Shown here one piece after another: positions 4,401 to 50,707 of a stretch of 64,000 bases of DNA. The notes below the pieces were generated by a model, which ran no database searches, had not been told where the DNA came from, and saw nothing but the letters and a program-made list of their open reading frames with translations. Positions within the stretch are counted from its first letter, which is position 1. Each line of letters begins with the position of its first letter. A program made the translations under genes and the position numbers. The stretch covers positions 16,674 through 80,673 of the forward strand of contig DAHWUP010000001.1 in NCBI GenBank assembly GCA_027334565.1, written 5' to 3'. This stretch comes from Candidatus Levyibacteriota bacterium (GTDB taxonomy: Bacteria > Patescibacteriota > Microgenomatia > Levybacterales > UBA12049).

Positions 4401-4667
4401 TTGAATATAATCGAAATGATGATCGGAAACGTCGATATCCAAACATTCGCATTGATTATAATACTCGTCGCCTGGACATTCGCGTGGAAAGGCGTTGCTT
4501 TATGGAGAGCGGCGAAACTCGGTCAAAAAAACTGGTTCATCGCTTTGATTATTTTAAGCATCCTCAACCTGTTGGGTCTGGTAGAAATCATTTATCTTTT
4601 CTTCTTTGCCAAGAAGAAATTAACCATCAAAGAAGTTAAATCCTGGTTTGTTAAACAAACCTCTTGA
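4401..4667 (+). CDS. small two-TM membrane protein (DUF5652-like?), the only plus-strand gene inside the minus-strand glycosylation operon
   Basis: 88-aa ORF with two hydrophobic helices and WRAAKLGQKNWF between them. Fills the 4354..4650 gap. Family name recalled from memory only. Confidence 0.45.
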   Translation: MNIIEMMIGNVDIQTFALIIILVAWTFAWKGVALWRAAKLGQKNWFIALIILSILNLLGLVEIIYLFFFAKKKLTIKEVKSWFVKQTS

Positions 4668-16736: not shown

Positions 16737-18414
16737 ATACGATCCTGAATGCTTTTGTTCCGTCTTTTCTTAATATGAAGGAGTATTTTCTGTACCTTAA
16801 GGTCTTGTTGCTCGGGCAAGTCCCGTTATCGATGAACAACGCATTTTTTAATTTGGCAATTTTAGGAGATTTGTCTATCGAAGGACAAGCCGCAGTAGCA
16901 AATACAAATTTGCCAAAACCTCCGTCAGGCGGATCCTTAGGTGACCCTTCTGCCTGATATAGAGCCGGAGGATATTTCATGTAGAATAAGACCAAAGGAT
17001 AAATTCCACCAAATGATTTGGAAATGACGATATGATCATATTTGGAGTAATTTTCCTTGACCACATCCATCATATTCGCAAATCCTTCATACCTATACCA
17101 ATTCTGATGGATCTGGGATTGTATAAAATACTGAAAAGAAAAATAACTAAAATTACAAACAAGCAACAGAGCAAAAATACCTATGAATGCCTTATAAGTT
17201 ACGCCGGAAAATTTTTCGGCCAGTTTAATAAAACCGTATACGGCGATCATATCGATAATGGGGAACATGACTATCGCACGTTGTAAATTCGGAATATCAT
17301 CGGTCGTAAAAGCTGCGGTCACGGGTGCAAGCACAAGCCAGATCAAAGGGAGCTTGTGATAAATGTCTTTTGAAGACAAAAGGTAGTACGCCCCGAACAA
17401 AATAAAAGGCAATTCTATCAAATAGATCAACCCCATTGAAGGCACCTTGTACCAGATCGGCAATCCTCCCTGAATAAACAAAAATTGTCCCGAGAAATAA
17501 TCAAGATAATTAGAAACTAGCGCGAGGGAATAATCGATAACCTTGTTATGGACAACCCTTGTCACCAGCGCCGGAATGCCCATAACTCCGGATTCCCTTA
17601 TCTGTTCTGCCAAAACCAGCCCTACATGAGGATCGCCAAATATGTTTACCTCGTTGAATCTCCCCGTTCCTCCCGGAATAAGAAATACCAACGCAAACGA
17701 AACAAAAGAAAGAAGCACGAAAGAAACAACCAAAGACATTTTCAGCTTGGTACCGAATTTTTTCCAAACCGGATAAAGAAAACCGAGCGTCACAAGAAAA
17801 AGCAGGGGTACGAAAACCCTCGGGGTGTGATAAAAGAAAAAGCTTAAAGTGAGAAAAAATGAACCGATAAAAAAATACGAAGCTTTCTTGGTCTTTAATC
17901 CCAAAATAACGATCAGATAACCTGTGATTATCAAAAAAAGACAAACGATAGTTTCGGCACTTGCTCTGGATAAGACAACACTCCACGGCGCGACCGACAT
18001 CAGCAAAGCCGAAATAAGGCTGATTTTTTTATTTTTGAATAAAATCTGAGCCAGAAAGAAAAATGGAATTACGGAAAATGCACCGAATAATGCGCCCGGC
18101 AGGCGCGTTGCGAATACGGTTAAACCTAAAAATTTTATCGGTAAGATAGTTAAGTAATGGTATCCGGTAGGCCTCTCGTCACCGAACATATTGATATAGA
18201 GAGGAAAAGCGTGATTGCTTTCATCTTTTCCGGTCATAAGTAACGAATAACCGTTGTAACCAAGCGAAGCTTCATCAATATGAAAACCCAATGGCACGTT
18301 GCTCAGGTTATACAACCTGATAAATAATGCACCCAACAATATCAGTCCCAAAAAAACCGCCGTGAGCAACTGTTTTCTACTTATTCTTTTTAACATGCCA
18401 ACTAATGATACCAT
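16729..18414 (-). CDS. GT39/PMT-ArnT-like GT-C glycosyltransferase (tandem paralog)
   Basis: FHIDEASLGYNGYSLLMTGKDESNHAFPLYINMFGDERP. 561 aa polytopic. Confidence 0.75.
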   Translation of the reverse strand: MVSLVGMLKRISRKQLLTAVFLGLILLGALFIRLYNLSNVPLGFHIDEASLGYNGYSLLMTGKDESNHAFPLYINMFGDERPTGYHYLTILPIKFLGLTVFATRLPGALFGAFSVIPFFFLAQILFKNKKISLISALLMSVAPWSVVLSRASAETIVCLFLIITGYLIVILGLKTKKASYFFIGSFFLTLSFFFYHTPRVFVPLLFLVTLGFLYPVWKKFGTKLKMSLVVSFVLLSFVSFALVFLIPGGTGRFNEVNIFGDPHVGLVLAEQIRESGVMGIPALVTRVVHNKVIDYSLALVSNYLDYFSGQFLFIQGGLPIWYKVPSMGLIYLIELPFILFGAYYLLSSKDIYHKLPLIWLVLAPVTAAFTTDDIPNLQRAIVMFPIIDMIAVYGFIKLAEKFSGVTYKAFIGIFALLLVCNFSYFSFQYFIQSQIHQNWYRYEGFANMMDVVKENYSKYDHIVISKSFGGIYPLVLFYMKYPPALYQAEGSPKDPPDGGFGKFVFATAACPSIDKSPKIAKLKNALFIDNGTCPSNKTLRYRKYSFILRKDGTKAFRIVYD

Positions 18415-20758: not shown

Positions 20759-22278
20759 TTAGTTACCTGATAAACTCTGTAATAGTCATTGGTGTTTCCC
20801 TGTTTTACTTCAAAAATTAATTTAAGTGTCGGATAACCGGCAGGTAAAATTCTATGTTGGGGCTGGTAAAAAATAAAGTAAGTCGGCATGATTTTTGCCA
20901 TAGCCGATACTTCTTTGGGGAAAACGTCGACCGGCCAATAACCTTTTATAGTAATGTTTTTGTTCTGAACAAGGTAAAGCTCCATCGACTCGGGCATGAG
21001 GCCGAAAGTGCCTTCGGTTGCAATGAATATTTTATGATTTTGCGCCTGTTGCCTGAAAAACGCCACACTTTCTTTTACCCCCCATCCTGCCGCCCAACCG
21101 TCGATATACTGACTTTTATCCCTGTCGGCAATATGTGAATGGGTGGGATCGTTGGCGTACTGCAGCGAGATAAAACCGGGATATGCTACAAAAATTAGCG
21201 TAAGAACAATAAGGTATGCCAACTTCGGAAGGCCGAGTTTCAATCTTTTTTCGACAAAAGATATCAGGTATTCAAGTCCCCAGGCCGCAAGCGGAAGAAG
21301 CATCAAGCTCATTAAAAAAATAAAACGCGGATAAATGAGCCTTCCAAAAAGCGCCAAAGCCAGAAAGGGCAAAAGGAAAAAGATGATTAAAAGAAGTTTT
21401 TCTCTGAAAAATCTACCGATAAAAAATACTGCTATCAAGATCAAAACGATGTAGGAAAATGTCAGATATTGCAAAAGCCAGCTCGTCAAACCGCTTAGGT
21501 TACTGAATAAATAGGTAAAAGGGTGCGTAATCCATTGCGATACGGGGTAAACAAAAGTGGCGTCTTTGGCATCTATCATCGAATAAAGCGGAGATAGTCT
21601 TAAAATAGAATAAAGTCCGTAGGCGATAGCCGAAGAAAACCCGGCCAAGACGATATATCTTAATAACTTATTCCACATCCCTTTTTGCTTAAAATCGAAA
21701 ATAACCAGCAAAAAAGGCAAAAGGTACAGGCTGAAAAAATTTGAACTCTTGGTCAAGACTCCTGCGCCGATTACAAACCCTAAAGTGTACGAAACGTCCA
21801 ACCTTAATTTCCTGACCAGAAGGATTGAAAAATATAACCCCCAGACATAAAAAGTTGCCACCATGCTGTCATAAATCGCCATCCTGTCCAAAACTTGGGC
21901 AAAAGGATAAAAAATATAAAGCAGGGATGCCAAAAATGCGGTTGTTTTATTCTTAAATAGCTCATAGGTTAAAACGAACAGCCCGAGCATCGTCACAAAA
22001 CCGGTCAGAACGGAAACCAGTCTTCCGGCTACCAGAGGATCGTTTATGAATTTGATAAAAATCATCGCCACCCAAACGAACATCGGCTGTTTTCCGTCGG
22101 TCAAAGAAATGAATCTCCATGAAGAATCGCGCAGCGCTATTTGTGCCCACCTTAAATAAATCGCCTCATCGGTAAAAATAGGCAGGCTGGTAAGAAAAAC
22201 TAGCCGGAGAAAAAAATAAAATAAGGATAGAATTACGAATCCGGTTATTTCCCGTTTATACTTTGAAAGGAGTTTCAT
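20755..22278 (-). CDS. GT39/ArnT-like GT-C glycosyltransferase
   Basis: PIFTDEAIYLRWAQIALRD...DGKQPMFVW first-loop motif (ArnT-like DE..Y). 507 aa polytopic. Confidence 0.7.
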   Translation of the reverse strand: MKLLSKYKREITGFVILSLFYFFLRLVFLTSLPIFTDEAIYLRWAQIALRDSSWRFISLTDGKQPMFVWVAMIFIKFINDPLVAGRLVSVLTGFVTMLGLFVLTYELFKNKTTAFLASLLYIFYPFAQVLDRMAIYDSMVATFYVWGLYFSILLVRKLRLDVSYTLGFVIGAGVLTKSSNFFSLYLLPFLLVIFDFKQKGMWNKLLRYIVLAGFSSAIAYGLYSILRLSPLYSMIDAKDATFVYPVSQWITHPFTYLFSNLSGLTSWLLQYLTFSYIVLILIAVFFIGRFFREKLLLIIFFLLPFLALALFGRLIYPRFIFLMSLMLLPLAAWGLEYLISFVEKRLKLGLPKLAYLIVLTLIFVAYPGFISLQYANDPTHSHIADRDKSQYIDGWAAGWGVKESVAFFRQQAQNHKIFIATEGTFGLMPESMELYLVQNKNITIKGYWPVDVFPKEVSAMAKIMPTYFIFYQPQHRILPAGYPTLKLIFEVKQGNTNDYYRVYQVTK

Positions 22279-28536: not shown

Positions 28537-28610
28537 GCCGCCATCGTCTAGTGGCCTAGGACGCCAGGTTCTCATCCTGGAAATCGTGGGTTCAACTCCC
28601 ACTGGCGGTA
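28537..28610 (+). tRNA. tRNA-Glu (anticodon CTC)
   Basis: Hand-folded cloverleaf. Acceptor GCCGCCA/TGGCGGT (G1-U72), D-arm TCGTCTAGTGGCCTAGGAC (near-identical to the canonical tRNA-Glu D-arm), anticodon stem CCAGG/CCTGG with loop TTCTCAT, T-arm GTGGGTTCAACTCCCAC, discriminator A, then CC. Confidence 0.8.
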
Positions 28611-29315: not shown

Positions 29316-31049
29316 TTATCCGAATGTGAATGCGTAAACCTGCGTTCCCGGGGTTTCGAATTCAAGTTTTACAATGTGCGAACCGGTTTGACCCTTTAGA
29401 TCGATAAGATTGTAAAGCCTGTCCGAATCGACCGTGACCGTTCCGTTTTTTACGTCCGAACCGGCGTTGGCATCATTAACCACTTTATCGTCCAAAAAAA
29501 CTTTTATTTTCGCAGTGCCTTGCGTTCCGGGATTTAAAACCAAAAAAACTTTATTCGCATAAAAATCATAAGTTAGTGTCGCCCCGGGACCGGTGATTGC
29601 GTTTTGGGGCGATATATTCCAGCTTCCCCCCAAAGAGAATGAGTTCACAGGCGGGTTTTCGGACAAGGTGAAATTAGTATTTACCACACCCGTATTTCCG
29701 CTTGGATAATAATACTCCATCCTCTGGGCATTAAGATAAGTCTCGGGGGATAAATTGCCTTGTGGTGTTTGGTCGGGAAGATTGTCAAGCTTAACGGTTA
29801 CTTTTTGACCGGCTTCCTTTAAGAGCTCCCGGATCGCCATTTCGGTCCGGTCATACTCCCCTTCGCCGAAATGCGTCCGCCTGACATTTCCGTTTGCATC
29901 TATAAGGTACTCGGCCGGCCAATACTCGTTGTTATAGTTGTTCCAGGTAGCGTAATCGTTATCCTGAGCGACCGGATAACGTATATCAAACATTTTTATT
30001 GCATTCTCAATGTTTGGAGTACTGTGTTCGAACGCAAATTCCGGCGTATGAACGCCGATTACTACAAAACCTTTATCCTTATACTTGTCGTACCAGCTGG
30101 TGACATGAGAAAGGGTTCTGATGCAATTAATGCAGGTATAGGTCCAGAAATCGACCAGCACCACTTTTCCCCGTAAAGCACTGAGCGATAAAGGCTTATC
30201 CGTGTTCAACCAACCGGTAATACCAACAAAACCCGGCGCGGGATAATCCGCGTTAAAAAGCGAACTGTCGGAAAGCGAAGGTAAATTCAATAAGTTCGAA
30301 GATTTTAACGAATTCAACTGTTGAGTCACCGCGGGATTACTTTCGATAGCCGTAAGCGAGTTTGAGTATGACGGAAAATAGTCCAAAAGTTTCGTCTCCA
30401 AGACCCTGTCATAACCGGTCAGTATCAGCAAAGCGGTCAAGATCATGACCACGCCAAAAACCTGCTGAACACGTCCGGTATATTTTGACAACAGTTTCGT
30501 TTTGCCGAAAACCCTGTTTCCAAGACTTGCAAAAATGAAAAGAGGAATCCCCGCTCCGGCCAGGTAAAAGAAAGTAACAAGTACCGTTGCAAGATTTACT
30601 CTAAGAGTAGCCGACAAGGTTGCGATAGTTGCCAGAATCGGTCCGGCGCAGGGAGTCCAGACCACGCCTAAAGCCAGGCCGGTTACCAAACCCGATAAAA
30701 ATCCTGTTTCTTTGGATACATTTAAATTTCCGAATTTTCCGACCAAACGACTAAGGTAAGCTTCCAAATACCGGCCGAATTTCGGGATTATCAGCGAGAA
30801 ACCGAACAGCCCGATCACCAAAACCGCGAAAAGGCGCAGAAGGTTTGTGTCAAACGGAATTATTTTAACAAGATAAGAAATAAAGAGCGTTAAAATGCCA
30901 AACGACAGCATTATTCCGAACGTTATTCCCAAAGGCTTTCTGTGTCCACCGGTTGAAGACGATAAAACCAATGGAAGAATCGGCCAGATACAGGGGGCGA
31001 AAATAGTAATAAGACCCCCCAAAAACGCAAAGACAAATAGCACCAGCAT
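29316..31049 (-). CDS. CcdA/DsbD-like membrane domain fused to a TlpA/ResA-like thioredoxin domain plus a C-terminal beta-rich domain
   Basis: N-terminal FAPCIWPILPLV (CcdA Cys motif) with several TM. Thioredoxin-fold region VVLVDFWTYTCINCIRTL (CxxC). About 180-aa extra C-terminal domain. Confidence 0.7.
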   Translation of the reverse strand: MLVLFVFAFLGGLITIFAPCIWPILPLVLSSSTGGHRKPLGITFGIMLSFGILTLFISYLVKIIPFDTNLLRLFAVLVIGLFGFSLIIPKFGRYLEAYLSRLVGKFGNLNVSKETGFLSGLVTGLALGVVWTPCAGPILATIATLSATLRVNLATVLVTFFYLAGAGIPLFIFASLGNRVFGKTKLLSKYTGRVQQVFGVVMILTALLILTGYDRVLETKLLDYFPSYSNSLTAIESNPAVTQQLNSLKSSNLLNLPSLSDSSLFNADYPAPGFVGITGWLNTDKPLSLSALRGKVVLVDFWTYTCINCIRTLSHVTSWYDKYKDKGFVVIGVHTPEFAFEHSTPNIENAIKMFDIRYPVAQDNDYATWNNYNNEYWPAEYLIDANGNVRRTHFGEGEYDRTEMAIRELLKEAGQKVTVKLDNLPDQTPQGNLSPETYLNAQRMEYYYPSGNTGVVNTNFTLSENPPVNSFSLGGSWNISPQNAITGPGATLTYDFYANKVFLVLNPGTQGTAKIKVFLDDKVVNDANAGSDVKNGTVTVDSDRLYNLIDLKGQTGSHIVKLEFETPGTQVYAFTFG

Positions 31050-39517: not shown

Positions 39518-40751
39518 AAAAAGGTTTTTATTTTTAATTCCGGTGCTGGCGATCGTCGGACCGGGTATCATCTCGGGCTCCGTTGATAACGACGCCGGCG
39601 GAATAACCACTTATTCGGTTGCCGGAGCAAATTTTGGGCATTCTCTTTTATGGATACTTTTTCTAACCACCTTTGCCCTGGCTATAACCCAGGAAATCGG
39701 CGCCAGAATGGGTCTTGTCACCGGAAAAGGACTCGCATCTTTAATCAGGGAAAAATTCGGTATCCGTTGGACAACCTTTGTGATGGCGTGTCTGTTGGTC
39801 GCAAACCTGGGGACCATCGCGGCCGAATTTGCGGGGATCGCGGCTTCAATGGAAATTTACAACATTTCAAAATTTATTTCTGTTCCCATAGCAATAATTT
39901 TGATCTTTGCGTTGGTGGCTAAAGGAAGTTTTAGGAAACTTGAGAAATTATTCCTCCTTTTATCTTTTTTCTATATCGCCTACATCGCCTCCGCTTTCAT
40001 CGTGCACCCCAACTGGACGATGGCGATTAAAAGCCTGGTCATACCGCAGATTAAACTTTCCGGCGTGTATATTTTAACCATGATGGCAGTGATCGGAACA
40101 ACAATTACTCCCTGGGGACAATTCTTTATTCAGGATTATGTCGTCGACAAAAAACTTACCAAAGAGGATATGAATGTCGAAAGAGGTGACGTTTTCTTCG
40201 GGAGCTTCTTAACCAATTTCATCTCCTTTTTTATAATCGTTGCCTGTGCGGCGACGATTTTTACCAAAGGGATTCAGATAACTACCGCCAAAGACGCCGC
40301 CCTGGCACTGCAACCGTTGGCCGGTAATTTTGCCGAGATACTATTTTCGTTCGGGCTTTTAAATGCATCGATTTTCGGTGCGGCCCTGGTTCCGGTCGCA
40401 ACCTCTTATGTCATTACCGAAGCGTTCGGCATAGAATCGGGGCTTAACTATTCAACCAGAGAAACTCCGCAATTTTACGGGCTTTTTATCCTGCTTTTGA
40501 TAATCGGCGGTTTAATGGTCATACTTCCGTTTTTTCCTTTACTGACGATTCTGGTCGTATCCCAGGCGATCAATGCGGTTTTATTGGTACCGATATTTGT
40601 GTTTTTGTACCTTCTCTCAAACGACAAGAAAATCATGGGCGAACACACCAATAATAAAGCCGTGAACGTCATCGTCCTTTTGACCATGGCAGGGTTATCG
40701 GTCGCTTCCCTTATCTATATGGTCTCGCTTTTCTTACCCAACCTGATATAA
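39495..40751 (+). CDS. Nramp-family transporter with non-canonical metal-site motifs (candidate NRMT-like)
   Basis: GPGIISGSVDNDAGGITTYSVAGANFGHSLLWIL aligns to the Nramp TM1 region, with D-A-G-G in place of DPGN. The TM6 region AVIGTTITPWGQF replaces A..MPH. 418 aa, about 11 TM. Confidence 0.8.
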   Translation: MKILTLIRKRFLFLIPVLAIVGPGIISGSVDNDAGGITTYSVAGANFGHSLLWILFLTTFALAITQEIGARMGLVTGKGLASLIREKFGIRWTTFVMACLLVANLGTIAAEFAGIAASMEIYNISKFISVPIAIILIFALVAKGSFRKLEKLFLLLSFFYIAYIASAFIVHPNWTMAIKSLVIPQIKLSGVYILTMMAVIGTTITPWGQFFIQDYVVDKKLTKEDMNVERGDVFFGSFLTNFISFFIIVACAATIFTKGIQITTAKDAALALQPLAGNFAEILFSFGLLNASIFGAALVPVATSYVITEAFGIESGLNYSTRETPQFYGLFILLLIIGGLMVILPFFPLLTILVVSQAINAVLLVPIFVFLYLLSNDKKIMGEHTNNKAVNVIVLLTMAGLSVASLIYMVSLFLPNLI

Positions 40752-40839
40752 ATTTCAAAGCTGTCTTTAAGCATATTTTAAAAACCGAATTACTATACTA
40801 TTATATATACCGTTTTCCTCCAAAATCCCCACCAATGCG

Positions 40840-40859
40840 ATTGTGATTATAATCACAAT
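40840..40859. promoter_or_regulatory. 20-bp perfect palindrome ATTGTGATTATAATCACAAT (with an embedded TATAAT) upstream of the giant adhesin gene
   Basis: Perfect dyad symmetry. A putative promoter, TTGCAT (40866..40871)-N17-TATATG, lies immediately downstream. Candidate operator. Confidence 0.6.
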
Positions 40860-40992
40860 ATTATATTGCATAAATAGCAATAAATATGTATATGAATTGA
40901 ATTACTACGGGTTATTGCATTTTAATATATCGAATGGTACTATTCGGACAATCTTAATTTATACCCGCCCGAATACAATTAGATTAAATTTA

Positions 40993-43900
40993 ATGAAAAA
41001 ATCTTTCCTAAGAAAGATCATTAATATTTTAGGCACTCTTGCGATTATTTCCCAATCGCTTACTCCTTATGTCGTTTTGCTCCCGCAAACATCTTATGCC
41101 CAGGAAACTTCTCCTACTCCGACACCTACCCCGTCGCAAACCACCAACACCAATACCACTACTAATAACAGTACGATCCCAACCGTAACTCCGACACCTG
41201 CGGTATCCCAGACCACCGTTACGCCGACGCCGACGCCAGTAGGCACAACAACCGAAACCCCCACTCCGACACCGACAGATACGACAACGCTAACACCGAC
41301 ACCTTCGATTGATAACACCGCGACTCCATCACCGACACCAACGGGGCTTTCTCCTCCCGATAACGCGACTATATCCGCTTCACCTACTCCAGCTGTTTCA
41401 AGTACACCTACCCAAAATGATTTCCTGTCCACGCCTAGCGGAATTTCAAACACTTCAACAAGTTCAGGTAATATATCACCAAACCTAAATGAATCTTTAA
41501 ATGCCATAATTGTACATAACGTCAAGGCAAATACATTAAATCTTACAAATGTTATATCCCAAGGTAGCGCAACCCTAACAACCAATAAAACCGATTACTC
41601 ACCTACTGATACTGTGGTTATAAATGGAACAGGATTTTTACCAAAAACTACATATACTTTAGAAATCGTATCCAGCGACCCCCCGCCGGTTGACTTTACG
41701 ACTGCAGTAACATCGGATAATAAAGGTGACATTGTTTACGCATATCAATTAGACGGCAATTACCGGCCAAACTATACGGTTTATGCAAAAGATTCGTCTG
41801 GGCAAATAGTTGCGACAACAACATTTACTGACTCGGGGGTAACGGTAAGCGTATTATCATGGAATACAATAGGTGTCGACAGCAATAAGCCAGTTTCAAC
41901 AGGACCCCATCAATTTGTTATTCAAGCAAGAGTAACAAATAATACAGGGTCAAGCATCACAAATGTTTCGGCAATTTTTGCTTTAGGATCTGGAACTTCG
42001 TACATTACCACCTTAGGCCCATTGACACAAAATATAGGAACGCTTGCCAATAATTCGTCTGCCGATGTGTTTTTTCAGGTTGTTATAACTCCACCTCCTT
42101 CTCCAGACAGCCCTAGTAATGCGGTTTACGGTACTAGTAGAAACTATACCGTTACAGCAGATTACACTGATAATTCAGGGGCGCAAGTAGCATCTTATTC
42201 TAACACCCTAACTATATTAGGACTCAATTCCCAAAACAGGAATAGTATTTTATCTACTACCGTAAGCCCTTCTACAATTACCGTTGGGGGTACATTCACC
42301 GTAACTGTAACTTCAAAAACAACCGGCGGTGGAAATTTTACCAACGTATCGGTACCAATGATGTTTGATCCTAATGTTGCCCAAATGATAGGTGATGTAA
42401 CCACTTATCAAATCCCAGCGGGAACTACATTAGATTCATTTTATGACCAAAACGTTGGAGGAGATATACAATCCGTATTTACATTTAAAGCTCTGGCAGC
42501 AGGAACATCAAATTTTTACTGGCTAATTTATGATCAATCTGGAGGAAGTTACCATTATAATTCTGATTATGGACAGGCTATTATAATTACTGTAAAACCT
42601 GGTTTCGGGATAACAAAAACTCCCGCATCACAAACAGTAAACCCGGGCGGGACAGCAAGTTTTTCATCCGTTATTTCCAACAGTGGTAACGGTACGGGAA
42701 CAATTTCATCGATTATAGATACATTGCCTGTTGGTTTTTCTTATAAGACTGGCAGCACTACAGGAATAACTACAAATGATCCAGCGATTAACGGTCAACA
42801 ATTAACATGGACTGGCCCATGGACAATAACCCCTGGGAATTCAATTACCATTAATTATCAGGCAATTGCTTCAACTACTCCCGGAACTTACACCAATTCA
42901 ATTATTGCAAAAGATAGCAATAATAATACAGTAGGACCGGCAACAGCAGATATCATCATCCCTGCTCCCACGGGCTCAATAACCATAGTAAAAGATGCAC
43001 AACCTAATAGCTCCCAATCTTTTTCCTATACCACAACCGGAAACGGACTTTCCAATTTTTCCTTGGTTGATGATGGTATAAACAACACTTATTACACTAC
43101 ATTTAGTAACTTAACTTCAGGAAATTATTCAATAACAGAATCCCCGACAACAGGTTGGTCGCTGACAAACCTTAGTTGTTTGGATAATAATAGTAGTCAG
43201 TCCGTTGGAAGTATAACAAGTAGCACAGCCTCTTTATCGCTTACAGCTGGACAAAACGTAACATGTACCTATACAAACACAAGGGATACGGGAAATATAG
43301 TCATAAATAAAACAGCAATAGGAGGAGATGATATATTTGGATATGCCATAACAGGTCCTTCGGGATACAACTCTTCTCAATCAATAAAAACAAGTTCCGG
43401 AATCGGAACTACCGGAAATATTCCTGTAAATACCGGAAGCGGTTATTCTGTAATAGAAGATACACCACTACCTGCTGGATGGGTGCCGACAAGCGTAGTT
43501 TGTAATAATGGAACCCAAAACGTTTCAAACACCAATTTCAGCGTTTCTAAAGGACAAACAGTAACCTGTACCTTCACTAATACTAAACTCGCAATAATTA
43601 CTGTTGAAAAAAACATGGTTGGAGGCACAGGAACCTTTAACTTTACGGGTAACTTTTCGGGAAGCATAGATACCAATGGGGGAACGATAACAGAATCCGT
43701 TCTGCCCGGAACATATGTTGCAACAGAATCAGCTACAACAGGTTGGGATTTAACCGATATAAGCTGTACCGGAGCCGGCAGTGGTTCGGGAAACTTGGGC
43801 AATTCAACAGCAACATTTAATGTAGCTGCAGGACAAAATGAAACTTGCACATTTACCAACACGAAATATGGTTCAATAACAGTTGTTAAAACCACCACAA

Positions 43901-46900
43901 ACGGCGATGGAACGTTTGACTACACGACAACAGGCGGACTAACTCCATCAACATTCAGCATAACCACAACGGGTGGAAACGGTTCTTTCCCTTATAACAG
44001 CGTATTGCCTGGAAATTACTCGATAACCGAGCTTACTGATGCAAGCTGGCAATTTAACTCATTAAGCTGTATTTCGGGCAACACAAACATTGCAACGTAT
44101 AGCGGGACCACTGCTTTCTTCCCTTTCGCAGCCGGTGAGAATGTTACCTGTACATATGGAAACACAGGTCTTGGGACTTTAATAATAGATAAAAATACAA
44201 CCGGCGGAGACGGCAGTTTTGGCTATACGGTAAACGGCGCAAGTTCTTCCGCACAAACTATTAATACAAGCGGCGGAGCCGGTACAACGGGCCCGCTAAC
44301 CGTAATCGCGGGAAATTACACAGTAACCGAAGCTAGCCAAAGCGGATGGATGCAAAATCCCGGATCATCTTGTTATGATCCATCGACAAGAACAACATAT
44401 TCACCATTTAATGTAACTGTAGGTATTGGAAAAATTGTCACGTGTACATTTAATAATACAAAACTTTCGACTATTAAAATTGTTAAAGATACAAATGGCG
44501 GAAACGGAACTTTTCCTTTCACAACAACAGGCAGTTTAACTCCTTCAACATTTAATATTGACACTATAAAAACTAACCTACAAGAATATGATAATGTAAC
44601 TCCCGGTTCGTATTCAATTTCCGAAACCTCACAAAGCGGATGGGATTTAACAGCACTTTCATGTACATCTTTAAATGGCAATTCAACGACATCAACCAAT
44701 CAATCAACGGGCACGGCTACGATAACCAACCTTGCAGCAGGAGACACAGTCATCTGTACATTTACGAATACTGCTAAGGGTTCATTAACAGTTAATAAGA
44801 TCACTATCCCAACGGGTATTACTACGACATTTAACATTAACGCAACCGGTTCTGGTACAATAACCGGCGGAGGGGCTGGAACAGTTTCAATAACAACCCC
44901 AAAGACTTACGAGGTAACTCCCGGAACATATTATGTTTCCGAAACACCGGCAACCGGATGGACGGAAGATACCAGCAATTGTCAGGGGGTAATCGTTGCC
45001 GCAGGGAAAAACTCAAGCTGTACCATTACAAATACAGAATTATCCAACTTGACTATCGTTAAAAATACAGTTGGGGGTGACGGGACTTTCGATTTTATAG
45101 CAACGGGGTCAGGGCTTAGTAATTTTAGCTTAACAACAGTGAGCGGGATAAAGTCTAAAACTTTCTCCAATATAAATTCGGGAACATATTCTGTAGCAGA
45201 AGACTCTCAAACAGGATGGATATCAGATACTTCAAACCCGCCAACTTGTACCAATGGCGATAATCCTTCATCTATAACTCTAAACCCGGGCGATAATGTG
45301 ACTTGCACTTTTACAAATGATAAATTACCTACGTTAACGGTTACAAAAACACTGTTACCAAATAGTGATTTAGGGAAATTTAACTTATTGATCGACAGTA
45401 ATATTGACGCAACAAATGTCGGTAATGGAGGGACAACCGGTACGCAAATAGTCAGCATAGGTTCGCATACAGTTTCTGAAACTGCCGGAACTTCAACCAA
45501 TCTTTCGGATTACAATGCCATAATCGGTGGAGATTGTGCTCCTGACGGCTCTATAAATTTGGCTGCAGGAGATATCAAAACTTGCACCATAACAAATACA
45601 AGATATGGCTCAATAACTATTGTCAAAAATACTATTGGGGCGGACGGGACTTTCGGCTTTATTGCAACCGGGTCCGGAGTATCAAACTTTGATATATCAA
45701 CAATATCCAACACAGGTTCTCAAACTTTCCCCAAACTATCACCCGGTACATTCTCATTCTCTGAAAATACACCTGCAAGTTGGGTGGAAGGATCAGTTTC
45801 TTGCAAAGATAATTCAACAGGAGGAACTGTTGGTACTGTTGTATCGGGACTTGCGTCATTCAGCCTAACTGCAGGACAAAACATAATCTGTACATTTAAT
45901 AATACCGCGCAGGGAACATTGATAATAGATAAAACAGCATTAGGCGGAGACTCAACTTTTGATTATACTGTTTCGGGTCCAACCAATATGTCACCCAGTA
46001 TTACTACCACAAGCGGTTCTGGAACAACTGGCGGAAAGGTAGTTATAGCAGGAACATACGACATTGCTGAATCTTCACAGGCGGGGTGGGTACAAAAAAA
46101 AGCAACTTGTGACAATGGAGATAATCCATCAAATGTTAACGTAGGCGTTGGAGATACAGTCACCTGCACATTTACTAATACTAAACTTGCCAATCTTACA
46201 ATAGTAAAAAACACAGTCGGCGGGGATGGGACTTTTGACTTTACCACAACCGGCTCGGGACTTAGTAATTTTGACTTAACAACTTCAAACGCAACAGCTT
46301 CTGCACCATTTGCCGATCTTAATCCTGGTTCTTATTCTGTTTCAGAAACTTCACAGCCGGGTTGGACATTAACCTCATCCAGCTGCACGAATGGTGATAA
46401 CCCGTCCAATATCACTTTAAACCCAGGAGATAATGTAATTTGCTATTTTGAAAATACAAAATTAGGAAGTATTACTGTTACCAAATATACCGACCCGGGT
46501 ACAGCCCAAACTTTTAACTTTACTCTAACAGGACTAGCAACCGGTTCGGCAACTACAAATATAGGAGATGGACAATCTTATACTTTTAATCAATTACCTC
46601 CTTCTGTTTCTTATTCCTTATTGGAAAATCCAACCACAGGATGGGATTTAACAGCGCTAAAATGTATTTCCACCAACAACAACTCAACTTTTTCTACGGA
46701 TATACCGACAAGTACAGTAACAATATCTAACCTTACACCAGGAGACAACGTAACCTGCTCATTCGGCAACACCGAAAGTGGGAATGTAATTATTACAAAA
46801 TATAACGACGTTTTGGGACAAGGAGTTTTCGATCAGACTGACCCGACGCTTTCGGGATGGACGATGAATCTGGCAAGCTATTCGGGAGGAATGTCTCAAA

Positions 46901-47733
46901 TAACCGATACAAACGGCATTGCAACATTTAATAATATTGCTCCGACTTCCTATACATTAACCGAAAACCAGCAAAACGGTTGGCAATTGACTGATATGTA
47001 TTGTTCTGGACAGGAAGAAGGGCCTATATTCGGCCCAACATCAACCAGCTACCCATTATTTGTCCAGCCCGGACAAACAATCTATTGCAGAGTCTTAAAC
47101 CACAACCTAATTCCTATCCTTACAATCACAAAAACAAACGATGCGGGCGATAATGTTCTAGGTCCGGGTAGCACGGTCAACTATACAATTACCATAACTG
47201 CAACGCAATCCGCGGCGCAAAATGTAACCGTTACCGACCTTCTTCCCGACGGGTTCCACTATAATTCCGGTTCATGGCAGGCTCTTTTGAACGGAAATCC
47301 TGTTTCCGTTCCTGAACCCACTTATCATTCACCAGGCACCTGGACTCTTGGCAACATGAACGTTGGGGATACTTACACCCTTAAATACTCGGTGACAATT
47401 GACGGCTCTGAAGCAACCGGAACATATTACGATAATGCCTGGGGACAGGGATATTCGGGTTCGGGCAACGTGGTATTAGCAAACGCAACAACCGACCCGG
47501 CACAAGGCTTTATCAATGACCCGACTTTCGTGGGAACCCAGGTTGTAATTGCTGCTTCTAATAATCAGGGCATCAACTATTCTAATCAAGTTACCCAAGA
47601 GGTTCTGGGAGCATCGACTTACCTTCCGGCTACCGGAGAAAATACACTTTGGGTTGTCCTGGCAACCTTACTCGGACTTTCAGGCTTGGGTATGCTATTA
47701 TACGGATTTAAATTAAGGAGAAATAATAAATAA
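40993..47733 (+). CDS. giant (2246-aa) sortase-anchored surface protein
   Basis: Start chosen at MKKSFLRKIINILGTLAIISQSLTPYVVLLPQTSYAQE (signal peptide); the upstream 50-codon extension in the ORF track is rejected. It has a signal peptide, a mucin-like Thr/Pro linker, Ig-like domains, two DUF11 domains and 14 CnaB/SdrD-B-like repeats. The C-terminus is LPATG (47623..47637), a hydrophobic helix and a KLRRNNK tail. Confidence 0.85.
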   Translation: MKKSFLRKIINILGTLAIISQSLTPYVVLLPQTSYAQETSPTPTPTPSQTTNTNTTTNNSTIPTVTPTPAVSQTTVTPTPTPVGTTTETPTPTPTDTTTLTPTPSIDNTATPSPTPTGLSPPDNATISASPTPAVSSTPTQNDFLSTPSGISNTSTSSGNISPNLNESLNAIIVHNVKANTLNLTNVISQGSATLTTNKTDYSPTDTVVINGTGFLPKTTYTLEIVSSDPPPVDFTTAVTSDNKGDIVYAYQLDGNYRPNYTVYAKDSSGQIVATTTFTDSGVTVSVLSWNTIGVDSNKPVSTGPHQFVIQARVTNNTGSSITNVSAIFALGSGTSYITTLGPLTQNIGTLANNSSADVFFQVVITPPPSPDSPSNAVYGTSRNYTVTADYTDNSGAQVASYSNTLTILGLNSQNRNSILSTTVSPSTITVGGTFTVTVTSKTTGGGNFTNVSVPMMFDPNVAQMIGDVTTYQIPAGTTLDSFYDQNVGGDIQSVFTFKALAAGTSNFYWLIYDQSGGSYHYNSDYGQAIIITVKPGFGITKTPASQTVNPGGTASFSSVISNSGNGTGTISSIIDTLPVGFSYKTGSTTGITTNDPAINGQQLTWTGPWTITPGNSITINYQAIASTTPGTYTNSIIAKDSNNNTVGPATADIIIPAPTGSITIVKDAQPNSSQSFSYTTTGNGLSNFSLVDDGINNTYYTTFSNLTSGNYSITESPTTGWSLTNLSCLDNNSSQSVGSITSSTASLSLTAGQNVTCTYTNTRDTGNIVINKTAIGGDDIFGYAITGPSGYNSSQSIKTSSGIGTTGNIPVNTGSGYSVIEDTPLPAGWVPTSVVCNNGTQNVSNTNFSVSKGQTVTCTFTNTKLAIITVEKNMVGGTGTFNFTGNFSGSIDTNGGTITESVLPGTYVATESATTGWDLTDISCTGAGSGSGNLGNSTATFNVAAGQNETCTFTNTKYGSITVVKTTTNGDGTFDYTTTGGLTPSTFSITTTGGNGSFPYNSVLPGNYSITELTDASWQFNSLSCISGNTNIATYSGTTAFFPFAAGENVTCTYGNTGLGTLIIDKNTTGGDGSFGYTVNGASSSAQTINTSGGAGTTGPLTVIAGNYTVTEASQSGWMQNPGSSCYDPSTRTTYSPFNVTVGIGKIVTCTFNNTKLSTIKIVKDTNGGNGTFPFTTTGSLTPSTFNIDTIKTNLQEYDNVTPGSYSISETSQSGWDLTALSCTSLNGNSTTSTNQSTGTATITNLAAGDTVICTFTNTAKGSLTVNKITIPTGITTTFNINATGSGTITGGGAGTVSITTPKTYEVTPGTYYVSETPATGWTEDTSNCQGVIVAAGKNSSCTITNTELSNLTIVKNTVGGDGTFDFIATGSGLSNFSLTTVSGIKSKTFSNINSGTYSVAEDSQTGWISDTSNPPTCTNGDNPSSITLNPGDNVTCTFTNDKLPTLTVTKTLLPNSDLGKFNLLIDSNIDATNVGNGGTTGTQIVSIGSHTVSETAGTSTNLSDYNAIIGGDCAPDGSINLAAGDIKTCTITNTRYGSITIVKNTIGADGTFGFIATGSGVSNFDISTISNTGSQTFPKLSPGTFSFSENTPASWVEGSVSCKDNSTGGTVGTVVSGLASFSLTAGQNIICTFNNTAQGTLIIDKTALGGDSTFDYTVSGPTNMSPSITTTSGSGTTGGKVVIAGTYDIAESSQAGWVQKKATCDNGDNPSNVNVGVGDTVTCTFTNTKLANLTIVKNTVGGDGTFDFTTTGSGLSNFDLTTSNATASAPFADLNPGSYSVSETSQPGWTLTSSSCTNGDNPSNITLNPGDNVICYFENTKLGSITVTKYTDPGTAQTFNFTLTGLATGSATTNIGDGQSYTFNQLPPSVSYSLLENPTTGWDLTALKCISTNNNSTFSTDIPTSTVTISNLTPGDNVTCSFGNTESGNVIITKYNDVLGQGVFDQTDPTLSGWTMNLASYSGGMSQITDTNGIATFNNIAPTSYTLTENQQNGWQLTDMYCSGQEEGPIFGPTSTSYPLFVQPGQTIYCRVLNHNLIPILTITKTNDAGDNVLGPGSTVNYTITITATQSAAQNVTVTDLLPDGFHYNSGSWQALLNGNPVSVPEPTYHSPGTWTLGNMNVGDTYTLKYSVTIDGSEATGTYYDNAWGQGYSGSGNVVLANATTDPAQGFINDPTFVGTQVVIAASNNQGINYSNQVTQEVLGASTYLPATGENTLWVVLATLLGLSGLGMLLYGFKLRRNNK
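41100..41440 (+). repeat. low-complexity mucin-like Thr/Pro-rich linker within the giant protein
   Basis: ETSPTPTPTPSQTTNTNTTTNNSTIPTVTPTPAVSQTTVTPTPTPVGTTTETPTPTPTDTTTLTPTPSIDNTATPSPTPTG... Confidence 0.8.
42973..47115 (+). repeat. array of 14 tandem ~98-aa CnaB/SdrD-B-like repeats with a conserved Lys/Glu/Asn triad
   Basis: Each repeat reads roughly xxTIVK.T.GGDGTFDF...G....SYSVSE....GW.L....C.....NP..ITL..GDNVTCTFTNTK. Repeats 8, 10 and 12 share nearly identical N-terminal halves (NLTIVKNTVGGDGTFDF..TGSGLSNF.LTT). Confidence 0.75.
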
Positions 47734-47738
47734 TTATT

Positions 47739-48689
47739 ATGAATAAACTGTTTAAATCATTGTTAATGTCTTTTGCGGCACTCTTCCTTTTTTCAGGGGT
47801 AAGTTTTGCTTCAACTTCGGTAAGGCTGCAGCAGCCGCAAACACCCACCAACCAGAATGCGTTCAACATCACTTTTGTTGCTTTGGATACCAACTCGTCC
47901 CAGGTTGTAACTGTTCAGTGCCAAAAACAGGGTCCGGGTGATTCAAATCCTGTGAATTTCGGCTCACCTATCACGCTTTCTGCCGGCGGCAATACCAACG
48001 TTTGCCAGGTCGGAAACGGACTATTGAATCAAAACGGCACTTACCAGTTTGACGTAATCGCCTACGGATCAAGCACTACAACCAGCAATACCGTCAACGT
48101 AGACTTTAATACCGATGGACCGGGCACACCCGGCAATTACAATAAAACCAAACCCGACAACTGCACTTACGAGATAACCTTTAGAACGGCCGACGACAAT
48201 GGGAAAACCGTCAAGGTGGTCTTGTACCGTTCGTCCAATCAGAACTTTAGCTTAGACAACGGAACCCAGGTAAACCAGGTTAGTATCGGTTCGAACACCG
48301 ACGGCTCGATGACCGACAACATCAGCCCAAACTGCAATACCAACTATTACTACGCGATCAGGGCTTTTGATAAATACGGAAACGGCTCGGGAGCAACCGG
48401 AGACAGTTCAACATCTACAACAATCATCAGTCCGACAGTTACGCAGCAGGAAGGAGCAATAGCCGGCGGTACCGCGGGAAATGTGCTTGGAGCCGAAGCC
48501 GGTGGACAAGGACAAGTTTTGGGTACGGAAAGTGCAAAACCGACCCAAACCCCTGCAAAAGTAACGGGACAAAATCCTGTTTCAAACGCAGTAAACTGGG
48601 TACTTACCCACAAAAAGGTCAGCTTGCTGGTTCTAATAATTTTGGCAGCGATTGCATACTTTCTTTACCGCAGATACTATAAAAAGTAA
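47739..48689 (+). CDS. secreted Ig/Fn3-like protein with a C-terminal membrane anchor
   Basis: Signal peptide MNKLFKSLLMSFAALFLFSGVSFAS, two beta-rich domains (...NYYYAIRAFDKYGNGSG), then a Gly/Ala-rich stretch and a C-terminal TM with an RRYYKK tail. No canonical LPXTG (nearest is PAKVTG). Confidence 0.6.
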   Translation: MNKLFKSLLMSFAALFLFSGVSFASTSVRLQQPQTPTNQNAFNITFVALDTNSSQVVTVQCQKQGPGDSNPVNFGSPITLSAGGNTNVCQVGNGLLNQNGTYQFDVIAYGSSTTTSNTVNVDFNTDGPGTPGNYNKTKPDNCTYEITFRTADDNGKTVKVVLYRSSNQNFSLDNGTQVNQVSIGSNTDGSMTDNISPNCNTNYYYAIRAFDKYGNGSGATGDSSTSTTIISPTVTQQEGAIAGGTAGNVLGAEAGGQGQVLGTESAKPTQTPAKVTGQNPVSNAVNWVLTHKKVSLLVLIILAAIAYFLYRRYYKK

Positions 48690-48698
48690 AATAGAATC

Positions 48699-49289
48699 GT
48701 GAAACTTCTCTCAAGAATTCTAATAACAATTGGGTTACTTTTGATTTTTTCTTCGGTTGTTCTATTTGTGTACATTTTCGCACCGGTGGCAAAAGTCGAA
48801 CTAAATTATGACCTTAACCGGCCCAGGGCAAACATCAATCAGATTACGCCTGTGGACAAAAATTTCGACATCGTCATTCCCAAGATAGGCGCCAACGCCA
48901 GGATAATTCCAAACGTAGACCCATTCAATTCAAACGTTTACGAACTGGCACTTTCCAAAGGCGTCGCGCAGGCCAAAGGCTCCGCCTTCCCCAACCAAAC
49001 CGGCAATATGTTCCTGTTTTCCCATTCCTCGGCCAACCTTTTGGAAGCTACGCGTTTCAATTCGATATTTTATCTACTATCAAAGTTAAATAAAGCAGAT
49101 GTAATTTATATTTATTACAATAATACAAGATACAAATACGTTGTGTCGGGAACCAAACTTGTTGACCCTTCCGACGTTTCTTATTTAAATCCGAAATCCA
49201 GCGTTAAACAGCTGACTTTGATGACTTGCTGGCCTGCAGGTACTAATTACAAAAGACTGATTGTAATTGCAAAATCTCTAAGTAAATAA
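48699..49289 (+). CDS. sortase (GTG start)
   Basis: N-terminal TM anchor, His region FLFSHSS, catalytic TLxTC motif QLTLMTCWP (Cys codon near 49228), conserved Arg in YKRLIVIA. 196 aa. Confidence 0.7.
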   Translation: MKLLSRILITIGLLLIFSSVVLFVYIFAPVAKVELNYDLNRPRANINQITPVDKNFDIVIPKIGANARIIPNVDPFNSNVYELALSKGVAQAKGSAFPNQTGNMFLFSHSSANLLEATRFNSIFYLLSKLNKADVIYIYYNNTRYKYVVSGTKLVDPSDVSYLNPKSSVKQLTLMTCWPAGTNYKRLIVIAKSLSK

Positions 49290-49313
49290 ATTCTGTCTAT
49301 AGCTTAAAGTAAA

Positions 49314-49329
49314 TATTCCTTCGGAATAC
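49314..49329 (+). other. UUCG-tetraloop hairpin TATTCC-TTCG-GGAATA immediately after the sortase stop; no T-tract
   Basis: 6-bp stem with a tetraloop. Possibly an RNA-stabilising element. Confidence 0.4.
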
Positions 49330-49649
49330 AGACACTACGCTTCGCTAGTCCACGGGAACCTATTATAAACGCCTAATTGTTATCGCAATTTCAAAATAAA
49401 CTGCTGAAAAAGTCTTCGATCCTCCCGCAACTACAGGAATAATCTCTTATCTTTCTTAAGCCTTATTTAAGAATTGCCTGCTATCATTTTTAAATTAATG
49501 AGAAAGTATGGATTGTTAAAACATTATTCCTCTTCGCCTATTCAGCCTCAATTTATAGTAATTACAATTACTGCGCTAACCCTAAATCCGCGATATATTT
49601 ACAGCCCAACGATAGATAGTTGAGCCAGATCTTAAATAAAGGAGGAAAT

Positions 49650-49736
49650 ATGCTGCAAAGCATAAGAGGCACCCGAAAAGGGTGTCTTTTTTTATCGAAA
49701 GAGACTGTCACTGGAGCATCAAAAAAACCCACCTGA
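49650..49736 (+). CDS. candidate 28-aa small ORF with a strong Shine-Dalgarno (AAAGGAGG)
   Basis: aaggagg at 49639..49645, then ATG at 49650. Encodes MLQSIRGTRKGCLFLSKETVTGASKKPT. An intrinsic terminator lies inside it. Confidence 0.3.
   Translation: MLQSIRGTRKGCLFLSKETVTGASKKPT
49668..49693 (+). terminator. rho-independent terminator (GGCACCC-GAAAA-GGGTGTC plus T7)
   Basis: 7-bp stem with one G-U pair, GAAAA loop, TTTTTTT tract. Confidence 0.6.
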
Positions 49737-49755
49737 AAACACAGAGCCAGGTGGG
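49721..49755 (-). terminator. minus-strand rho-independent terminator (CCCACCTG/CAGGTGGG 8-bp stem followed by T7 on the minus strand)
   Basis: Perfect 8-bp stem with a 12-nt loop. The A7 run on the plus strand is the T-tract on the minus strand. It faces the plus-strand terminator about 30 nt away. Confidence 0.5.
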
Positions 49756-49819
49756 CAAGAAGGACAGTACTACCCTTAACTGAAAAGAAGCTTAAGATAA
49801 ATATCGTCTTCTTGACATA

Positions 49820-50707
49820 ATGCTTAAAAAACTGCTTAAATTAAGTATGGTCAAATTAAAGAAAAAACCGGCTTTCTTTTCAAGCGGATTCAAGTTTTTG
49901 ATAGTGGTCGTTGTTTCCACCATACTTGTCCTATCGGGTGTTACATATCAAACCAACTCCTTGCCGCGCCGCGTCTTGGGAGCATCGACGATAGCCGATA
50001 CTGCAGAAGGCCAACAAACGGATGGGCAGATCAATCAGCGCCCGGACTTTCAACCCCCTGCCGGTACGCAACAAAACCAGAATTTTCAAGAGGGGCAAAA
50101 TCCGCCTTCCCCGTTATATAGGGCAAGCTTCGAAACCCAAAATCATGAAAGATTTACATTGGGTCAGGATCATCCGGAAATCCAAATATCCAGTCAAGAC
50201 GGAAGGTTAAGTATAAAGGCCAGAAACCAGAACGGGCTTGAAACAGAACTAGACACCGGCTCGCTAGGCCTGATCAACGAAGGCCTGAGGAACGAAGGTC
50301 TGGAAATTGCGACCACCGAAGGAGGATTCTTATTAAGACAAGGTACTTATTCTGCGATGACCCATTTCCCGCTCTCGATAAATACGCTTACCAATCAGCT
50401 GACCGTCACTACTCCGACGGGTACAAAAACGGTAGCCGTTCTACCCGATCAAGCAGTTGAAAACCTGATCAGACAAAAATTCATTTCCGTGGTCGCTTCC
50501 TCATCCGCAGACACAGGTATAAATCTGGACGTTTACGCCAGTCAGTCGGCATTTATGATCAACGGAATCTTACACAAAAACTTATTCGGTTTTTTCCCGG
50601 TTAACATTGATAAGACCGCAGTAGTTTCAGCGGAAAACGGACAGCTTCTTACTACGTACGAGTCGTTTATAAACAAACTGCTCGACCTTCTCTCAGTTCC
50701 TTCCTAA
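49820..50707 (+). CDS. hypothetical membrane-anchored/secreted protein
   Basis: 295 aa, N-terminal TM (FKFLIVVVVSTILVLSG), Gln/Asn-rich. No recognisable motif. Confidence 0.45.
   Translation: MLKKLLKLSMVKLKKKPAFFSSGFKFLIVVVVSTILVLSGVTYQTNSLPRRVLGASTIADTAEGQQTDGQINQRPDFQPPAGTQQNQNFQEGQNPPSPLYRASFETQNHERFTLGQDHPEIQISSQDGRLSIKARNQNGLETELDTGSLGLINEGLRNEGLEIATTEGGFLLRQGTYSAMTHFPLSINTLTNQLTVTTPTGTKTVAVLPDQAVENLIRQKFISVVASSSADTGINLDVYASQSAFMINGILHKNLFGFFPVNIDKTAVVSAENGQLLTTYESFINKLLDLLSVPS

Follow-up and report, generated by a model that had tools for sequence, protein, structure and literature searches.

What does a membrane protein that lacks an LPXTG motif do between a giant LPXTG adhesin and a sortase? 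The question is raised by a locus in a 64,000-nucleotide (nt) stretch of DNA from Candidatus Levyibacteriota bacterium (GCA_027334565.1, contig DAHWUP010000001.1, positions 16,674 to 80,673, forward strand), which we refer to as the window and whose first letter is position 1. On the + strand, the adhesin gene (ending in LPATG) is followed by an open reading frame (ORF) for a protein of 316 amino acids (aa) with two FN3-type domains, and then by the gene for a 196-aa sortase with a GTG start and a TLMTC motif; this order, proposed in a first-pass annotation, was confirmed from the ORFs of the window. Microgenomates are uncultured, ultra-small and probably host-attached bacteria, and giant surface proteins are their best candidates for host attachment. 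The sortase family is near-ubiquitous among them (Méheust et al. 2019, PMC6744442), and the literature that we searched gave no description of sortase partners in candidate phyla radiation (CPR) bacteria or of the substrates of a Microgenomates sortase. Here we report a conserved sortase cassette of three components across Microgenomates and WWE3, the third of which is the 316-aa ORF. We consider it reasonably probable that its product is an uncleaved, membrane-retained FN3 partner of a dedicated adhesin-sortase pair, made one-to-one with the adhesin. The principal features of the locus are as follows.

40993..47733, + strand: giant surface adhesin, 2246 aa from its probable ATG (ORF and Pfam)
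47599..47730, + strand: adhesin sorting signal, EVLGAST-Y-LPATG with a hydrophobic helix and KLRRNNK (LPATG at 47623-47637)
47739-48689, + strand: ORF of the 316-aa middle protein, starting 5 nt past the adhesin stop
48699-49289, + strand: sortase ORF, 196 aa, GTG start, 9 nt past the middle ORF

The FN3 module and the sortase are reciprocally linked

Using the pattern RAFDxxGNG of the middle protein (hereafter, with its relatives, the module), we fetched 77 genome loci from Levy-, Davies-, Gottesman-, Shapiro-, Roizman-, Woese- and Pacebacteria, WWE3 and unassigned Patescibacteria, 72 of which had a module ORF. A sortase homologue lay immediately downstream on the same strand in 68 of these 72; three further loci had a truncated sortase N-terminus at the contig end, which brings the total to 71, and one locus had assembly gaps. 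The reverse comparison began from 80 metagenome loci picked by sortase patterns alone, 14 of which had less than 300 nt of upstream sequence. Here the module was directly upstream in 65 loci, and one more carried a module tail (GAIPL...RVLGEE...TM...RK, where TM is a transmembrane segment) beside an apparently chimeric stretch, giving 66 of 66 informative loci. Pooling both tests gives 138 informative sites in Microgenomates and WWE3, and module and sortase are neighbours at all but one of them (137). Module-sortase linkage is reciprocal and near-obligate. No flanking genes were conserved across the 77 genome loci, and the cassette is therefore the unit. Two copies on different contigs were seen in one Shapirobacteria metagenome-assembled genome (L033 and L043) and in one from WWE3 (L069 and L073), so the cassette is not strictly single-copy.

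The first-pass annotation had also allowed that the middle protein might be unrelated to the sortase, that is, a surface protein that stands between adhesin and enzyme by chance. Such a reading is now barely credible. The reciprocal adjacency (71/72 and 66/66) holds across phylum-level distances while the flanks are not conserved, and the module is frequently fused in frame to the adhesin, as described below; synteny and fusion together refute an unrelated neighbour.

The module is often fused to the adhesin

The adhesin ORF is open from a GTG at 40843, its likeliest start being the ATG at 40993 (MKKSFLRK...). An N-terminal signal peptide ending SYA, with QE after the cleavage site, is followed by a TP-rich region and some 19 repeats of the SpaA-type prealbumin fold, with a DUF11 domain in front of the sorting signal; Pfam returned SpaA_4 in 12 stretches (E 5e-114), SpaA_2 in 7 stretches and DUF11. 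The C-terminus reads ...QEVLGASTYLPATG-ENTLWVVLATLLGLSGLGMLLYGF-KLRRNNK and ends at 47733. It has each part of an LPXTG sorting signal, namely the pentapeptide, the hydrophobic helix and the basic tail (LPATG-ENTLWVVLATLLGLSGLGMLLYGF-KLRRNNK), and the sorting-signal peptide is EVLGASTYLPATGEN. In adhesin homologues the pentapeptide is LP[ASGKEQD]TG. The adhesin signal is the single LPXTG-type signal of the 64-kb window, which also has a single sortase homologue.

Among the 73 family ORFs (those of the 72 genome loci and the window), the module forms the C-terminal ~320 residues of a 560-3121-aa ORF in 36. In independent gene calls it was likewise fused in 89 of 143 retrieved top representatives; in 86 of these 89, a [LIVM]P.[TSA]G lies inside the protein, with 280-420 residues between it and the C-terminus. 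The N-terminal parts of the fused proteins are SpaA-type adhesins like that of the window. The order is then (E/Q)VLGAxTxLPxTG, a first transmembrane helix (TM1), a short basic loop, a second hydrophobic segment (TM2) ending in V/S/A-x-A, the two FN3 domains, the stalk, a third transmembrane helix (TM3) and a basic tail. At the junction, 87 of 91 fused proteins have LPXTG, TM1, a loop of median 6 residues and net charge +4, and TM2 with an A-x-A-type site. To read the fused relatives as lacking LPXTG would be wrong, since the signal lies within the ORF, immediately before the module. LPXTG signals internal to a single-ORF precursor were not described in the literature searched.

The junction topology would place both ectodomains outside the cell, with a TM hairpin between them and the final tail inside. 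In many split loci (e.g. L004, L007, L012, L017, L021, L024-L026, L028 and L029), the first start of the module overlaps the end of the adhesin ORF by 7 nt, an exact overlap from which it follows that split and fused forms differ by frame or stop only; the window has the 5-nt gap in its place. Fusion implies a one-to-one stoichiometry, which suits a structural partner better than a catalytic helper.

The middle protein is a membrane-anchored FN3 protein

The 316-aa protein has the following parts.

47739..47810, + strand: signal peptide, MNKLFKSLLMSFAALFLFSGVSFA followed by S, with a predicted signal peptidase I site after Ala24
47811..48404, + strand: two FN3-type beta-sandwich domains, residues ~25-125 and ~130-222 (predicted local distance difference test, pLDDT, >90)
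48405..48575, + strand: disordered Thr/Gly/Glu-rich stalk, residues 223-279 (pLDDT <50 over 229-279)
48453-48467, + strand: stalk motif GAIAG (family GAI(P)(V)), from alignments
48483-48491 and 48516-48524, + strand: stalk motifs (E/Q/N)VLG, from alignments
48552-48569, + strand: stalk PAKVTG, from alignments
48576..48686, + strand: juxtamembrane amphipathic helix SNAVNWVLTHKK, TM helix VSLLVLIILAAIAYFLY and tail RRYYKK (AlphaFold2 (AF2) helices 280-290 and 292-314)

The whole-protein AF2 model (pLDDT 79.9) has the signal-peptide helix at residues 2-18. Ala24 is invariant in the orthologue alignment (A1), and the predicted cleavage site is kept across the family, fused or split, with Ala at -1 in 254 of 263 and V, S or A at -3. 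Each ectodomain half is a seven-strand beta-sandwich with the Y..A...G.S signature of FN3 domains, and the conserved YYYAIRAFDxxGNGS is an ordinary FN3 F-G signature. An invariant Cys pair lies in each domain (C61/C89 and C142/C199), and Lys136 stands in an 'NYNK' segment of the PGTP interdomain linker. At the other end, the TM helix and basic tail are conserved, at least two K/R being found within the last 12 residues in 310 of 320 family tails. The earlier suggestion of a membrane-retained accessory or basal subunit is thus supported, as far as signal peptide, TM helix, basic tail and linkage can speak to it.

Neither Pfam nor NCBIfam gave a match above cut-off for this protein. A word-indexed search found 205 homologues. 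When 1.84 billion cluster representatives were searched with a profile, 1206 matched at E<=1e-3 and 502 at E<=1e-30; clustered at 50% identity, the FN3 module family thus has a minimum of 502 clusters at the latter threshold. Elsewhere in the window, a DsbD_TM-AhpC/TSA-thioredoxin fusion at 29316-31049 (- strand) forms an extracytoplasmic thiol-redox module, which may bear on the invariant Cys pairs; MdbA- and VKOR-like families are enriched in CPR bacteria (Méheust et al. 2019, PMC6744442).

No sorting motif above chance in the module tail

Might the sortase nevertheless cut the middle protein? In this alternative, the stalk would be cleaved at PAKVTG, NPVSNA, GAIPVxG or VLG and the FN3 protein then anchored to the wall. 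The tail does look tripartite, with a stalk motif, TM helix and basic tail, and the first-pass annotation had singled out PAKVTG as a possible non-canonical sorting motif. However, PAKVTG (residues 272-277) sits in the least conserved part of the stalk, a hypervariable linker in the 24 aligned orthologues, none of which has it, and it was rejected. No conserved LPXTG-like pentapeptide was found just before the helix, or elsewhere in the tail, in 320 unique family tails: strict [LIVM]P.TG occurred twice against 1.8 expected from shuffles, and loose LPXTG-like motifs five times against 16±4 expected, that is, at or below chance. The two canonical-looking motifs are LPQTG in L034 (module ORF 9989-10963), the same rare variant as in its own adhesin, and IPPTG in L049 (module ORF 8785-9810); two in 320 is the chance level.

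The remaining candidates fared no better. NP[VIL][STA]x[A] is conserved in close relatives, which counts for a cleavage site, but in close relatives only; it caps the N-terminal end of the juxtamembrane helix and is missing in distant members, which nevertheless retain the sortase. For these reasons, and because the enzyme showed no class B signal, NPVSNA was rejected as a sortase-B-like NPxTN. GAIPV is strongly conserved (Ala 100%, Ile 89%, Pro 74%) and lies just after a Thr-rich run, and an S/T-G next to it yields IPVSG or IPVTG in 32 of the 245 tails where the motif was located. Position 4 is nevertheless variable (G/S/T/A/I/E/N), the window copy is GAIAG without Pro, and the median distance to the C-terminus is 80 residues; GAIPVxG was therefore rejected as an LPXTG-like site. 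Cleavage of the stalk by the sortase is, in our judgement, very unlikely.

Since there is no motif above chance and the TM helix and basic tail are conserved, the FN3 protein appears built to remain in the membrane, and is probably not a second sortase substrate. The lack of a conserved C-terminal motif in the orthologues bears on the sorting-motif alternative only.

A VLG motif common to adhesin and module

(E/Q)VLGA[ST]T almost always precedes the LPxTG of the adhesin, and conservation so far upstream of the pentapeptide is unusual. In the fused relatives, 108 of 113 adhesin signals have VLG, 2-9 residues and then LPxTG, with a spacer of 4 residues in 69. VLG also occurs in 298 of 320 module tails, 3-48 residues from the TM helix, Gly262 being kept in 94%. 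A third occurrence lies behind the sortase gene.

49820-50707, + strand: 295-aa ORF after the sortase, with an N-terminal TM anchor and then ..RRVLGASTIADT..

The 295-aa protein, which carries RRVLGAST behind its anchor, belongs to an unrelated family (56 matches), 36 of whose 56 members have a VLG-type motif, typically (N)VLG[ATE][ST][ST], ~10-15 residues past the anchor. Its gene directly follows the sortase in three loci from close relatives (L158, L159 and L160, with a 34-nt gap in L160) and was not found in the 77 broader genome loci, which places it outside the core cassette. As VLG also follows an N-terminal anchor here, (E/Q)VLG is not established as a sortase-specific extension of the sorting signal. 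In the 295-aa family it may simply be a V-x-G signal-peptidase site, or else a stalk motif that the family shares with adhesin and module.

In another alternative, the FN3 protein would be a cofactor or regulator of the sortase. In actinobacteria, SafA, a 52-aa TM protein encoded beside srtA, uses an exoplasmic FPW motif to bind SrtA and keeps the signal peptidase LepB2 from cutting SrtA (PMC9282373). By analogy with this precedent, the juxtamembrane and TM segment of the FN3 protein could bind the TM or linker region of the sortase, either stabilising or positioning the enzyme or acting as an uncleavable mimic of a sorting signal that holds it near the site of adhesin export. The juxtamembrane segment is indeed conserved, and W or xPW frequently stands at the interface (NWVL, SPWTW, RPWYI, NPWIW); module tail and adhesin signal have (E/Q)VLG, TM helix and basic tail in common; the distance between VLG and TM helix in Shapirobacteria-type tails appears comparable to that in adhesin signals; and loose LPXTG-like motifs are depleted in the tails. 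However, two conserved FN3 domains, a long stalk and one-to-one fusion to the substrate would be superfluous in a cofactor, Trp is generic at membrane interfaces, and VLG is not specific to sorting signals, as the 295-aa family shows. We regard a SafA-like role as distinctly unlikely, if less so than cleavage.

A genuine sortase between two classes

The sortase has one N-terminal TM helix, a ~30-residue linker and the catalytic domain, whose catalytic residues, invariant in homologues, are the following.

49023-49025, + strand: His109
49227-49229, + strand: Cys177 (TLMTC)
49254-49256, + strand: Arg186

All three are invariant in an alignment of 21 sortase homologues. The protein matches Pfam PF04203 (81.7 bits against a cut-off of 26.6, E 4.8e-23) and TIGR01076 (51 bits, cut-off 39.35). 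Its AF2 model (pLDDT 77.5) consists of an N-terminal helix and then a beta-barrel, in which model and Foldseek together identify the eight strands of the sortase fold; Foldseek returned sortase structures at probability 1.00, class C first (E 6e-11) with streptococcal class A close behind, so that the fold is confirmed while the class is not settled by it. The enzyme is a genuine sortase by Pfam match, invariant triad and predicted fold, and the earlier identification, which would have fallen had the fold or the His-Cys-Arg triad been missing, is borne out.

Its classification by hidden Markov model succeeded at the superfamily level (PF04203 and TIGR01076) and stopped there: among the NCBIfam class models scored, no cut-off was reached. 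The best was class_C_sortase, at 63.5 bits far under its threshold of 160, followed by SrtD (52.8/140), class D (50.5/165), class E (41.2/160) and class GN (TIGR03784, 27.8/158); models for classes A, B and F were absent from the list at E<=0.1. The nearest solved structures by sequence are class C pilus sortases (E about 1e-7), and in the alignment with one such solved class C enzyme, TLMTC..RLIV is matched by TLLTC..RLLV. However, the class C lid (DP[WFY]) is absent as judged by eye from the alignment and the AF2 model, the ~30 residues from TM helix to strand 1 being without the motif; a VDPF at residues 73-76 belongs to the sortase core, and its counterpart in the alignment with Ebp SrtC is likewise a core segment. 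There is no C-terminal TM helix either, the protein stopping 10 residues past Arg186. By these comparisons the enzyme appears class A-like in architecture and class C-like in sequence, and is neither by curated profile tests.

Two genome loci have a second, divergent sortase homologue beside the conserved downstream one, just upstream of the giant gene in L048 (about 3644-4260, E 6e-18 to that of the window) and ~1.6 kb upstream of the adhesin gene in L006 (about 5623-6190, E 2e-8).

Could the FN3 protein be the acceptor?

The kinship with class C enzymes raises the alternative that the FN3 protein is itself the base onto which the adhesin is ligated. The sortase would join the carboxyl of the adhesin's LPAT to an amine of the FN3 ectodomain, either a Lys such as K136 or the N-terminus made by signal peptidase, and the product would be a two-protein surface fibre rooted in the membrane, like a pilus shaft on a basal pilin. 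For a fused precursor, this would mean that the TM1-TM2 hairpin is 'spliced' out by sortase and signal peptidase together. Class C pilin-polymerising enzymes are the nearest relatives of the sortase by sequence and fold, TLMTCWP...RLIV resembling TLLTCTP...RLLV, and fusion supplies donor and putative acceptor one-to-one. K136 is the best-conserved Lys (67/73) and lies just after the Pro-rich interdomain linker, and the conserved signal-peptidase site would always free an N-terminus on a short flexible tail, a median of 4 residues before the first strand.

Neither amine, however, behaves as a conserved nucleophile would. K136 is replaced in six of 73 proteins, by Val in five from WWE3, which have a Lys nearby, and by Arg in L053, which has none in the segment, and all six keep LPXTG and sortase; its candidacy as an invariant pilin-type Lys is weakened accordingly. 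The predicted mature N-terminal residue is variable (Ala in 45%, then S/V/G/D/T/N), which does not support a conserved N-terminal nucleophile. The acceptor would also be an odd pilin, with a plain FN3 fold in place of CnaA/CnaB, no pilin-type match and no LPXTG of its own, and the ligating enzyme an odd class C sortase, lacking both lid and C-terminal TM helix and scoring 63.5 bits against 160. Finally, cutting and re-joining a fused precursor would yield nothing beyond direct fusion. For these reasons we think a covalent base unlikely, even though it is the strongest of the alternatives. Were it true, a sortase pathway would end on a membrane protein and not on peptidoglycan or a pilin, and fused precursors would undergo enzymatic protein splicing on the cell surface by excision of the TM hairpin; to our knowledge, this would be the first known bacterial polyprotein with an internal sorting signal.

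A membrane-retained partner of the adhesin-sortase pair

The reading that we favour, an uncleaved FN3 partner, would work as follows. Sec would export both proteins, or the single fused precursor, and signal peptidase I would cut after the N-terminal or internal signal peptide. The sortase, through Cys177, would cut only the adhesin, between the T and G of its LPATG, and pass it to an amine, most likely that of a peptidoglycan precursor. The FN3 protein would never be cut. Remaining next to the sortase in the membrane, it would serve as a membrane-proximal stalk or docking base and position the C-terminal end of the adhesin, the sortase, or both. As adhesin and FN3 protein are made together, one-to-one and beside the cutting enzyme, a structural, stoichiometric partner is suggested.

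Several points weigh against this picture. The role of stalk or docking base is drawn from topology, linkage and fusion. Peptidoglycan is the most likely acceptor by assumption, from general knowledge of sortases, the existence of peptidoglycan pathways in CPR bacteria (PMC7143001) and the one PBP_dimer ORF matched in the window. 'Dedicated' reflects local context only. Lastly, the conservation of GAIPV and (E/Q)VLG in a disordered stalk would imply recognition by a partner that our model leaves unnamed.

Genomic surroundings and significance

A long run of envelope glycosylation genes at 1168-23491 (- strand) lies elsewhere in the window. It includes glycosyltransferases of types GT1, GT2 and GT4, a flippase (Polysacc_synt) and no fewer than five large membrane proteins that are GT-C-like paralogues (YfhO/PMT_2 matches at 4651-6984, 11723-13447, 18377-20758 and 20755-22278). 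Possible substrates of these enzymes are the Thr/Pro-rich stretches in the adhesin and in the FN3 stalk. Behind the sortase, the 530-nt gap at 49290-49819 contains an ORF of 28 codons, whose Shine-Dalgarno sequence is strong (aaaggaggaaatATG at 49651) and which runs into a hairpin and T-run (ggcacccgaaaagggtgtcttttttt, about 49668-49695), and a second, 8-bp hairpin near 49718-49757; the gap has no Rfam match at gathering thresholds. A promoter and terminator scan of 40600-49900 gave no signal above shuffled expectation, and tRNA and Rfam scans found one tRNA-Glu, at 28537, and nothing else.

These results define the unit in which the near-ubiquitous Microgenomates sortase stands: a giant adhesin, an unnamed family of FN3 membrane proteins and the enzyme. 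A three-part sortase cassette with internal sorting signals in its fused relatives was undescribed in the literature searched. So compact a three-gene system is suited to reconstitution, which could reveal what a sortase attaches its substrate to in the CPR envelope. For annotation pipelines, ORFs of 2000-3000 aa with a mid-protein LPXTG need not be errors.

Comparison with known systems

The window enzyme resembles housekeeping class A-type sortases in its single N-terminal TM anchor, the absence of a lid and the His-Cys-Arg triad with TLxTC, and its substrate resembles class A substrates in having LPxTG, a hydrophobic helix and a basic tail; wall anchoring of the adhesin is likely, as for these. 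It departs from them in a sequence nearer class C (with no class cut-off reached), in being encoded, on local context, with one adjacent giant substrate and not with many scattered ones, in a substrate signal nearly always preceded by (E/Q)VLG, and in an obligate third gene, for the FN3 membrane protein, that has no counterpart there.

Class C pilus and adhesin islands (Corynebacterium SpaA/SrtA, RrgB/SrtC, Ebp) offer the nearest relatives of the sortase, an adhesin of the same SpaA-type prealbumin fold and, at the position of the minor or basal pilin, a smaller second surface protein between substrate and enzyme. Unlike in these islands, the window sortase has neither lid nor C-terminal TM helix. 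The FN3 protein differs from basal pilins in lacking LPXTG, a CnaA/B fold and a strictly invariant pilin-type Lys and in having a permanent TM anchor, and the adhesin, unlike polymerising pilins, is a single 2246-aa giant.

Like SafA (PMC9282373), the module is a membrane protein linked to a sortase gene, apparently not a substrate and with a conserved exoplasmic juxtamembrane motif, and SafA is a precedent for sortase partners that act in trans. However, SafA has 52 aa, lies downstream of srtA and has no ectodomain, no substrate fusion and no sequence relationship to the module, which is ~320 aa long (316 in the window), is encoded upstream of the sortase and carries a pair of FN3 domains. 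The module does not have the defining features of SafA, and the W/xPW residues are a loose parallel.

The class GN 'marine' sortase (TIGR03784) is encoded with its adjacent target. The window shares with such pairs a self-contained cassette in which one sortase gene stands beside one large substrate gene, and differs in the score of its sortase (27.8 bits against a cut-off of 158), in lineage and in substrate; neither a conserved third membrane protein nor an internal sorting signal is known to us from class GN pairs.

For the fused forms, the closest likeness is to flavivirus-type polyprotein precursors, whose internal signal peptides are cut by the host signal peptidase. As in these, a fused ORF comprises two exported proteins with a TM hairpin between them, the second helix of which ends in A-x-A. 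Unlike them, it is a bacterial protein, and in its predicted processing the upstream cut would be made by a sortase, between the T and G of LPXTG.

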